Of a stretch of 64,000 nt of DNA, positions 28,923 to 46,172 are shown piece by piece. The DNA is taken from contig OZ024751.1 of the NCBI GenBank assembly GCA_964016885.1, positions 18,476,001 to 18,540,000 of the forward strand, given 5' to 3'. The notes beneath the pieces are model-generated. The model ran no database searches, had not been told where the DNA came from, and was given only the letters and a program-made list of their open reading frames with translations. Position numbers and translations under genes: made by a program. Source of the DNA: Eledone cirrhosa. Its lineage: Eukaryota. Positions within the stretch are counted from its first letter, which is position 1, and each line of letters opens with the position of its first letter.

Positions 28923-29895
28923 TCTATATATATAAAACTGTGGTTGTCTGTCTGTCTATCGATTTTTGGCACACATCTCCTCTTAGAATCTCTCACGGAA
29001 TTGCACCGAAATTGCTATACTTGTACATTGAGCCCTAGCGAAGACATCGGAAAAAAAAAAATTTCAAATTGACCCACCCTATGTGACGAAATCGAATATA
29101 ATGTATCGATTTTTGAGCGTAAATGATCAGTTATTTCCCTTTGTTCTGTTTACATTGAGCGTCTTACGTAAAAAATTACGCTGGCTTTCTCAGCGTTTAA
29201 AATGACATTAACAGTTGTCGAGCCAGCAAAATATTGACCTGCAAAATTCATCAGTTCGAACACTAAGCTTCCGTTTTGCTTCATTTCCATTTAAAAGCAT
29301 TTTAAAACAATATTTTTACTTGAAAACAAGTCTATTTAAAGACTACGTAAAACAAGCAAATATTTCGTCGTTAGGCGTGCAGACAGACAGTCGTGCAGAC
29401 AGACAGTCGTGCAGAGAGGTGATATACGCGTGCAGACAGATAGTCGTGCAGAGAGGTGATATAGGCGTGCAGACAGACAGTCGTGCAGAGAGGTGATATA
29501 GGCGTGCAGACAGACAGTCGTGCAGAGAGGTGATATAGGCGTGCAGACAGACAATCGTGCAGAGAGGTGATATAGGCGTGCAGACAGACATAACTGATAA
29601 TTTGGTTACGCTAATGTTTTTCTCTGCGTTGCAGTGTTTACATTTTCGATCTTTGTTAATAAATAACCAGTGCAGTTTTTATCCCCAGCATCCTCTTTTG
29701 TTATAACATTCGGGTTATCGTTATGTTTTCTTAACTTCATAAGGCATATTGTTGGTTGAGGGAATATTAATCAAAAACACCACATGCAAGTCTGCACAGT
29801 AGACACTACAGTTGTTAAGCCAAAAAAGAAACTTAACATTGAAACTTTAACACAGCTACTGAGCGACCCCGAGCAACGCCGGGCTTTACTGCTAG
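28923..29895 (+). mobile_element. Non-autonomous Helitron with internal 37-bp minisatellite (~29373-29590)
   Basis: 5' A|TCTATATATATAAAAC; 3' hairpin cccgagcaacgccggg followed by CTAG|T; inserted between A and T with no TSD. Confidence 0.85.
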
Positions 29896-40195: not shown

Positions 40196-40267
40196 CTCCC
40201 CGGCGGGGAATCAAACCCGGATCTCCCGCGTGACAGGCGGGGATACTTACCACTATACTACCGAAGT
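40196..40267 (-). pseudogene. tRNA-Asp-GTC: tRNA-Asp(GTC) copy, probably a pseudogene
   Basis: Minus ACTTCGGTAGTATAGTGGTAAGTATCCCCGCCTGTCACGCGGGAGATCCGGGTTTGATTCCCCGCCGGGGAG. T-loop TTT instead of TTC, damaged acceptor 5' end, T7 terminator 10 nt downstream. Confidence 0.85.
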
Positions 40268-44779: not shown

Positions 44780-44832
<53 letters not shown>

Positions 44833-44887
44833 GACGTAAAATAAGAAAATATTTTTTTAAAAAAATTTTTTACTTACTTAAATTTTC

Positions 44888-44969
44888 ACTCCAACTAATT
44901 AGTTTCTGCAATGGGATAAAGACAGTTACGTAATCCAACTGTCGAGAATTCATTGCGTCATCAGGGAGT
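44888..44969 (-). ncRNA. Type I hammerhead ribozyme (dimer copy 1)
   Basis: ACTCC-CTGATGA-C-GCAATG..GACAGTT..AACTGTC..CATTGC-A-GAAA-CTAATTAG-TT^GGAGT. Confidence 0.8.
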
Positions 44970-45455
44970 CTATTCTCAGTTAAGTCTCCAGGCAATGCGC
45001 GGACACTGGCGGCTCATATAAAAATAATAATAATTCGGTAGATCGAACAGCTTGCGAGGACTGGATTCTATGTACCGAAATTCTCACTGCTTCAAGTCAA
45101 ATGGCCGATTCTAAAGAATCAATCACGTGACACAGAGGCTAGTTAGAAGGAATGGGATGGTAAGATGACTGACGCCTACTAACACCCCAAAAAAAAAAAA
45201 AAAAAAATTTTTTTAGAAGTGGTTTTGACAAGTTTGCTCGACAAATCAGTGATTTGGAGATAAATATAGATAATTTAATATATCAACTAACATAAGCGCA
45301 CAGATGCACGCCCATGCCAGCAAATACACAGGTTATGTCATAGTACCTAGGTGGTTCAATGCAGGAGAATGCAGAACAATAATATAAAGGACGTAAAATA
45401 AGAAAATATTTTTTTTTTAAAATTTTAAAAAAATTTTTTACTTACTTAAATTTTC

Positions 45456-45537
45456 ACTCCAACTAATTAGTTTCTGCAATGGGATAAAGACAGTTACGTA
45501 ATCCAACTGTCGAGAATTCATTGCGTCATCAGGGAGT
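45456..45537 (-). ncRNA. Type I hammerhead ribozyme (dimer copy 2)
   Basis: Identical to 44888-44969. Confidence 0.8.
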
Positions 45538-45959
45538 CTATTCTCAGTTAAGTCTCCAGGCAATGCGCGGACACTGGCGGCTCATATAAAAATAATAATA
45601 ATTCGGTAGATCGAACAGCTTGCGAGGACTGGATTCTATGTACCGAAATTCTCACTGCTTCAAGTCAAATGGCCGATTCTAAAGAATCAATCACGTGACA
45701 CAGAGGCTAGTTAGAAGGAATGGGATGGTAAGATGACTGACGCCTACTAACACCCCAAAAAAAAATTTTTTTAGAAGTGGTTTTGACAAGTTTGCTCGAC
45801 AAATCAGTGATTTGGAGATAAATATAGATAATTTAATATATCAACTAACATAAGCGCACAGATGCACGCCCATGCCAGCAAATACACAGGTTATGTCATA
45901 GTACCTAGGTGGTTCAATGCAGGAGAATGCAGAACAATAATATAAAGGACGTAAAGTGG

Positions 45960-46172
45960 TCGTGGAGGTGCCACGGCAAAAAAGCACCCAGTAAATGAGG
46001 TTGGTGTTAGGAAGGGCATCCAGCTGTAGAATTCAACCCAGAATCAGTTCCCGTATGAGCAAGACAAGGTCGCCCGACATAACATTACCCACAACAGGAC
46101 AACACGCCTAACCCATGCTAGCGTGGAAGAATGAACTTAAAACGGAGATGATGATGATGATGATGATGATGA
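45960..46172 (+). mobile_element. 3' part of another SINE (Meta-domain-like aggaagggcatccagc) with (GAT)n tail
   Basis: ggttggtgttaggaagggcatccagctgtagaa...cccatgctagcgtggaa..(gat)n. Confidence 0.55.

Follow-up and report, generated by a model that had tools for sequence, protein, structure and literature searches.

The dimer insertion in the window

The window, a 64,000-nt stretch of Eledone cirrhosa contig OZ024751.1 lying in a 3.0-Gb, microsatellite-rich genome, harbors a tandem insertion of two units on the minus strand. Unit 1 (44825-45381, 557 nt) and unit 2 (45382-45939, 558 nt) differ by no substitution in direct comparison and are set apart by two indels, of 11 nt within the A/T tract and of 10 nt within a run of A. 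The insertion has a single arm that begins at a fixed start site, termed A, at position 44825, directly next to 42 nt of pure TA (44783-44824). The TA stretch marks the primed end of the insertion as its (TA)n target, and starts throughout the family have the same context. At the opposite end, nucleotides 45940-45955 repeat the opening 16 nt of the unit. A preliminary description of the locus had classified them as a terminal redundancy; the recurrence is confirmed, but instead of a special redundancy we find a third pass truncated after 16 nt and joined via a 3-nt AAA microhomology to the interior of a neighboring repeat. This repeat (45956-46171, plus strand), which lies outside the element, is the 3' part of an abundant SINE-like sequence that carries a (GAT)n tail and is entered internally.

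A second start site, B, maps to about 45822 in unit 2, its counterpart in unit 1 being near 45264; the window insertion makes no use of it as a start. The 118 nt between B and A (45822-45939, minus strand) are referred to here as the tail, in which a 23-bp G-U-rich hairpin is predicted beside site B (45836-45887, minus strand; 93% of cells paired). Covariation in this hairpin showed no excess over shuffles; the structure may be regarded as a candidate reverse transcriptase binding site.

Each unit carries a type I hammerhead motif on the minus strand (44888-44977 and 45456-45545, identical to each other), composed of stem I, the CUGAUGA core, a long two-part stem II, GAAA, a palindromic stem III and a GUU triplet. 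A predicted 6-bp pseudoknot pairs the 5' extension with the internal loop of stem II; it is invariant in 22 of 22 rows and thus gains no support from covariation. Cleavage is predicted at 44893/44892 and 45461/45460, which would release a monomer RNA of 568 nt (44893-45460, minus strand; 35% GC, folding z -3.4). On the circularized monomer, the longest ATG-initiated ORF spans only 27 aa on either strand, hence no coding capacity is present. The preliminary description had proposed a tandem dimer of nearly identical units without an ORF and with one hammerhead per unit, cut at these positions to yield the 568-nt product. All of this was upheld, the cuts and the product as predictions from sequence. 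Its notion of an intact hammerhead needs amending at the base of stem II, which is a C-A mismatch. It had also called the unit longer than those of typical metazoan retrozymes, which agrees with a range of 170-400 nt given in the accessible part of one report (PMC7229834) but not with the 51-972 bp given in that of another (bioRxiv 10.64898/2026.07.22.740005).

Rfam models missed the hammerhead at the gathering score as well as at E<=10. Because of this, our assignment rests on compensatory pairs and on arm ends at the predicted cut (see below). Across 22 variants selected from two families, 98.5% of the cells are paired, compared with 33-44% in slid controls. Five stem II base pairs are altered on both sides between subfamilies, with about five events between related families; the count of pairs changed on both sides showed no excess over shuffles (150/500). 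The motif has 4,291 exact occurrences genome-wide. A promoter on the ribozyme strand was not identified in the window; by eye, TATA-like motifs are visible at 45015-45023 and 45583-45591 on the plus strand, opposite the ribozyme strand. Of four sequencing runs (kind unrecorded), two from one organism have contigs that cover the unit; two from other organisms contain pieces at a depth of about 3 and were left aside.

Several other repeats were encountered. In the window, a 189-bp unit occurs 18 times in a homogeneous tandem array (10607-14017; 98% matches), and a tRNA-like match at 40196-40267 (minus strand), whose anticodon reads GUC and in which several pairs are broken, is probably a pseudogene or SINE head. 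A 37-bp tandem unit is common to 29392-29590 of the window and to locus L175 (about 6800-7000), and its presence at both places assigns it to a dispersed repeat. A further tandem repeat, about 480-510 nt long and bearing a hammerhead-like motif of its own, is found at L173:7218-9001 and also in L177 and L286, in the last of which it interrupts an arm of the dimer family. Three more families of hammerhead-like motifs (L169, L170, L168, L174, L160, L165, L175) occur in 2, 11 and 12 of 286 loci.

A dispersed family with two fixed start sites

With the unit as query, 803 candidates were obtained genome-wide, and the 40 that were scored show 98-100% identity. These numbers, together with the exact motif occurrences, exclude that the unit is single-copy, one half of an outcome (single-copy and untranscribed) that had been named beforehand as speaking against the original reading; the proposal of a young insertion of the retrozyme type is supported. 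A sister family has a 536-nt unit of 76% identity. Counting phases along unit 2 (1-558), site A is phase 1, site B about phase 441, and the predicted cut lies at 79/80. Exact junctions with (TA)n number 262 at site A and 558 at site B genome-wide, with none in reversed controls. Permuted start points, which the preliminary description had suggested seeking in other genomic copies, were looked for and are absent, the copies starting instead at these two fixed sites in (TA)n.

For the arrangement of arms we analyzed all 104 chromosome-1 loci on the A and B junction lists, a sample that is thus ascertained by TA-junction patterns; 30 loci not chosen by a TA junction showed the same TA context wherever their ends were in view. 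Fifty-six of the 104 loci are two-armed inverted insertions with one arm starting at A and the other at B, 41 are single-armed (counting L036, which has a degraded A arm below the identity cut-off) and 7 are complex. A/A and B/B pairs were not found at all. Two of the complex loci turned into A+B pairs upon extension, so that the two-armed layout with a tail at one end only is realized in 58 of 104 loci; the seven complex loci were excluded from the counts on 153 arms given below. Of 17 two-strand loci in the sister family, 15 follow the A+B pattern; the other two are an A/A and an irregular case. While the start sites are fixed, the inner ends of two-armed loci are variable. The arms overlap in template coordinates, as site A is passed by 47 of the 56 B arms, and multi-unit arrays are the family norm, with an arm crossing the cut at least twice in 43 of 97 loci and arms reaching up to 15 units. 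At five loci (L050, L056, L070, L110, L118), each arm holds sequence missing from its partner; since these arms are non-redundant, fold-back copying is excluded there.

One haplotype per insertion

Haplotypes were compared among the chromosome-1 loci and a further 16 arrays selected by their length, with A/T tracts masked and phases 240, 446 and 452 removed from the diagnostic sites; an apparent mosaic at phase 240 was rejected as an alignment artefact. The two arms of one insertion disagree at 12 of 1,451 diagnostic sites, scored in 58 of the 69 two-strand loci, compared with a mean mismatch of 20% and a minimum of 13% in 2,000 shuffled arm pairings. Shared variants are fixed within the array in 277 of 303 locus-site cases, and 30 haplotypes were distinguished among 93 well-covered loci. 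Variants private to one locus of the sample are fixed in all covering units in 15 cases (across both arms in 4), partial in 9 and confined to a single unit in 78. One private variant, when checked genome-wide, had 15 occurrences, all in one array and in 15 of its 15 units. Another, in L047, is present in 4 of 4 covering units of both arms, its sole other occurrence being on an unrelated background. Two of the three private variants tested genome-wide fill both arms of their own locus and appear elsewhere only in single units on other backgrounds. The lengths of A tracts shift between passes while substitutions stay fixed, by at least 3 in 7 of 40 arrays. As an observation apart, two separate insertions 4.6 kb from each other (L098:402-992 and 5019-5908) share a variant absent from the other sampled loci.

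These patterns would be accounted for best by a bottleneck of one unit followed by repeated copying. Two points count against an explanation based on circles: the nine private variants common to only some units are a sign of amplification at the DNA level, and a private variant could stem from a source locus that is missing in the assembly. The array at L099 and L179 (chromosome 1, 301308220 onward), which counts at least 27 units and carries mosaic variants, is apparently a local satellite produced by DNA-level amplification.

Arm ends at the predicted cleavage site

Crossings of the predicted cut were exact in 297 of 300 instances, and none carried an indel at the cut. Six of 153 arms, from four loci, end within one base of it. 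In a genome-wide search covering the family and its relatives, at 9 loci both arms end at the cut, separated by 0-2 nt, and at 11 loci an arm ends at the cut beside TA. Among the nine double run-offs, five have the size expected for an RNA with its 5' end at the cut, neither arm having crossed it, in three the A arm made one additional pass, and in one a different repeat breaks up the insertion. The comparison with other phases is a local one: exact fold-backs outside homopolymer tracts were seen at 4 of 123 loci, at four different phases. Among the loci sampled there is no palindrome at the cut base and no fold-back at the nearby palindrome of stem III. Termination is 2.2-fold higher in phases 1-80, that is, before the cut, after correction for exposure (P 8e-6), which counts against a circle-based explanation; the uncorrected enrichment of ends (P 3e-9) ignores exposure and was discarded.

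Arms ending at the predicted cut provide indirect evidence that the hammerhead cuts in vivo at the predicted base and that part of the templates were evidently linear, with their 5' end at this position. The proposal of the preliminary description that the insertion was copied more than once around a circular template is affected accordingly in both directions: array-fixed variants speak for repeated copying of one monomer, but some templates were evidently linear.

The likely Penelope-like partner

The genome contains 10,596 GIY-YIG candidates, some of them in long ORFs together with a reverse transcriptase domain. These ORFs carry a CxxC linker of the Neptune type, a clade feature of Neptune (PMC8557442). 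In one ORF-bearing Penelope-like family, a U3-A8 hammerhead is followed by two end sites 68 nt apart and then by (TA)n, and 8 of 8 inverted pairs among 37 loci were heterotypic, the query having covered the outer site. The order of hammerhead, two end sites and (TA)n, and the layout with a tail at one end only, are shared between this family and the dimer family. Further ORF-bearing Penelope-like families with a U3-A8 hammerhead, a palindromic stem III and (TA)n targets were noted at L163:2773-3040 (minus strand), L222 and L227; open frames extend over 938 aa in L163 and 1,096 aa in L165. Homology between the unit and a pLTR was not detected in 46 sampled loci out of the 10,596 candidates. A 21-nt match in L175 and L217 was discounted as evidence of a partner: it is weak, in the wrong orientation (L175) and outside the element. 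Judged from the layout, a Neptune-type Penelope element likely mobilizes the dimer family.

In the sister family (L183-L212, plus L268 and L273), 14 of 17 B junctions have at least four AG repeats between (TA)n and the element. Internal copies of this family have two (7 of 8), and the flanks on the A side are plain (TA)n. This suggests a telomerase-like addition of AG repeats during priming, the alternative being slippage after insertion.

Discussion

The feature is real and likely represents a retrozyme moved like a Penelope element, a kind that is already known. Metazoan retrozymes give rise to linear and circular RNAs, and Penelope enzymes have been proposed to mobilize them (PMC7229834; bioRxiv 10.64898/2026.07.22.740005). 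The dimer family agrees with metazoan non-LTR retrozymes in its non-coding tandem units with one type I hammerhead each, a palindromic stem III, a GC content below 50%, the dispersal of dimers and multimers by retrotransposition, and the coexistence with Penelope-like elements. Fixed starts, the inverted pairing of A and B arms, insertion into (TA)n and arms that run off at the cut, all seen in E. cirrhosa, do not feature in the accessible parts of those descriptions. The family further differs by its long two-part stem II, the predicted pseudoknot and the C-A mismatch, and no pLTR homologue was found in the 46 GIY-YIG loci sampled.

Neptune-type EN+ Penelope-like elements are similar in other respects: they combine a partial tandem with a truncated copy in inverted orientation, have a tail at one end only, insert into microsatellites, and carry a hammerhead close to the 3' end as well as two internal starts (PMC8557442, PMC3846280, PMC11167929). 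The tandem and inverted layout, the one-end tail and the (TA)n bias are on record for such elements (PMC8557442, PMC3846280), and the (TA)n at the starts of our family is likewise an AT-rich microsatellite target. The dimer unit differs from the Neptune type in having no ORF, and consequently none for the reverse transcriptase and GIY-YIG domains of an autonomous EN+ element, and in having arms of up to 15 units. Its tail of 118 nt compares with 30-40 bp in published elements, as far as accessible, and with 68 nt in the ORF-bearing family of the same genome. The accessible text of PMC8557442 terms the origin of tail and inverted copy undefined and the role of the hammerhead unclear, while PMC3846280 ascribes inversions to self-priming. 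A Penelope protein assayed in vitro was able to cleave both strands and extend them, with synthesis initiating at two internal positions on either side of the tail (PMC11167929). A strict pairing of one site with one DNA end is unstated for the Neptune type in the accessible text, and PMC11167929 found no strand difference in vitro. In the main texts of the open-access literature that was searched, we came across no report of the A+B rule, of array-wide private variants or of run-off at the cut.

LINE-1 twin priming uses the two ends of a DNA break as primers on one RNA and leaves an inverted junction. The dimer family has the inverted junction and would share the two-end priming on one RNA, but both of its primers are placed at fixed internal sites and the arms overlap in the template.

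On balance, we favor the view that the window feature is a non-LTR retrozyme of a young, protein-free family whose monomer RNA is probably circular and likely copied round by a Penelope-like reverse transcriptase. That a single monomer, whether circular or linear, served as template per insertion is the part of this view in which we place more trust; by analogy with related retrozymes, a covalent RNA circle is its likely form. Copying of RNA circles beyond unit length has been proposed since 2014 (PMC4209133, PMC7229834). Transcription through two hammerheads and self-cleavage would release the monomer, the arm ends pointing to the predicted cut, and ligation may follow as described for related RNAs (PMC7229834). 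An endonuclease of the Neptune GIY-YIG type would then cut both strands of the observed (TA)n target. One DNA end would prime at A and the other at B, 118 nt apart; the A+B pairing and the shared haplotype are observed, and both primers may well use the same RNA molecule. The arms would run for up to 15 passes each before their inner ends are joined to give the inverted pair or, in the single-primed case exemplified by the window insertion, before the inner end is joined to flanking DNA. Some templates, uncircularized or reopened, would lead to arms running off at the ribozyme cut. The in vitro findings that ribozyme cleavage is dispensable for insertion and that uncut RNA is the main substrate (PMC11167929) count against the circle.

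Two alternatives without a circle appear unlikely to us, and to the same degree. According to the first, the template is the cleaved linear monomer, and the enzyme, on reaching its 5' end, switches to the 3' end of the same molecule, kept close by stem I, with an untemplated A pairing with the terminal U for a seamless jump. This would cover single-haplotype arrays and cut run-off together, and the 0-2 extra A/T in run-off junctions as well as four unequal double run-offs, in which arm A made one crossing more than arm B, are in its favor. However, jumps of this kind are difficult to reconcile with crossings that were nearly always exact and invariably free of indels at the cut, with haplotypes that never switch in arrays of up to 15 units, and with the accumulation of related retrozymes as circles (PMC7229834).

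The second assumes that templates are in part uncut linear multimers transcribed from homogeneous source arrays, which would make the circle unnecessary. Run-off at the cut after 0, 1 or 2 crossings, the existence of the long array L099 and the observation that 8 of 9 Xenopus dimers remained uncleaved in vitro fit this proposal, as does the role of uncut RNA as the main substrate of an anole Penelope in vitro (PMC11167929). Yet variants that are confined to one array and at the same time fixed in it require a one-unit bottleneck followed by expansion, the haplotype diversity of the well-covered loci would demand equally many homogeneous sources, and the mosaic variants G9T and C96T of L099 are absent from all other sampled loci.

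We assign a far lower probability to the idea that monomeric or short insertions were amplified later at the DNA level, with the inverted arm formed by fold-back self-priming as proposed in PMC3846280. Some junctions are indeed same-phase fold-backs at palindromes, and L099 demonstrates local expansion. But the arms of five loci cannot be mutual copies, 58 A+B pairs in the absence of A/A or B/B are unexplained by fold-back, and A-tract lengths vary irregularly from 9 to 18 within one array. Finally, an assembly duplication of a single unit, to which the lack of substitutions between the units might point, is next to inconceivable in view of the 10- and 11-nt indels that part them and of the multi-unit architecture usual in the family, both of which argue against it.

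Returning to copying of a single, probably circular monomer, we tentatively put forward a more far-reaching model, to which we give somewhat less than even chances: Penelope-type integration might be an asymmetric double priming, in which one protein complex cuts both (TA)n strands and starts at A and B on a single ribozyme-made circle, both arms rolling around it. GA repeats at the B site would then reflect telomerase-like reiteration, and run-off junctions would be a record of germ-line hammerhead cleavage.

Each step leaves countable footprints in this family: a DNA end uses a single start site, an insertion carries a single haplotype, and arms stop at the predicted cut. This makes proposed mechanisms testable. 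One and the same genome supplies a 558-nt template and near-intact Neptune-type ORFs for in vitro work. If asymmetric double priming proves true, a single model would explain why Penelope-like elements have a tail at one end, an inverted copy and partial tandems, and double run-off junctions, if read correctly, would preserve in the genome a trace of germ-line cleavage by the hammerhead.
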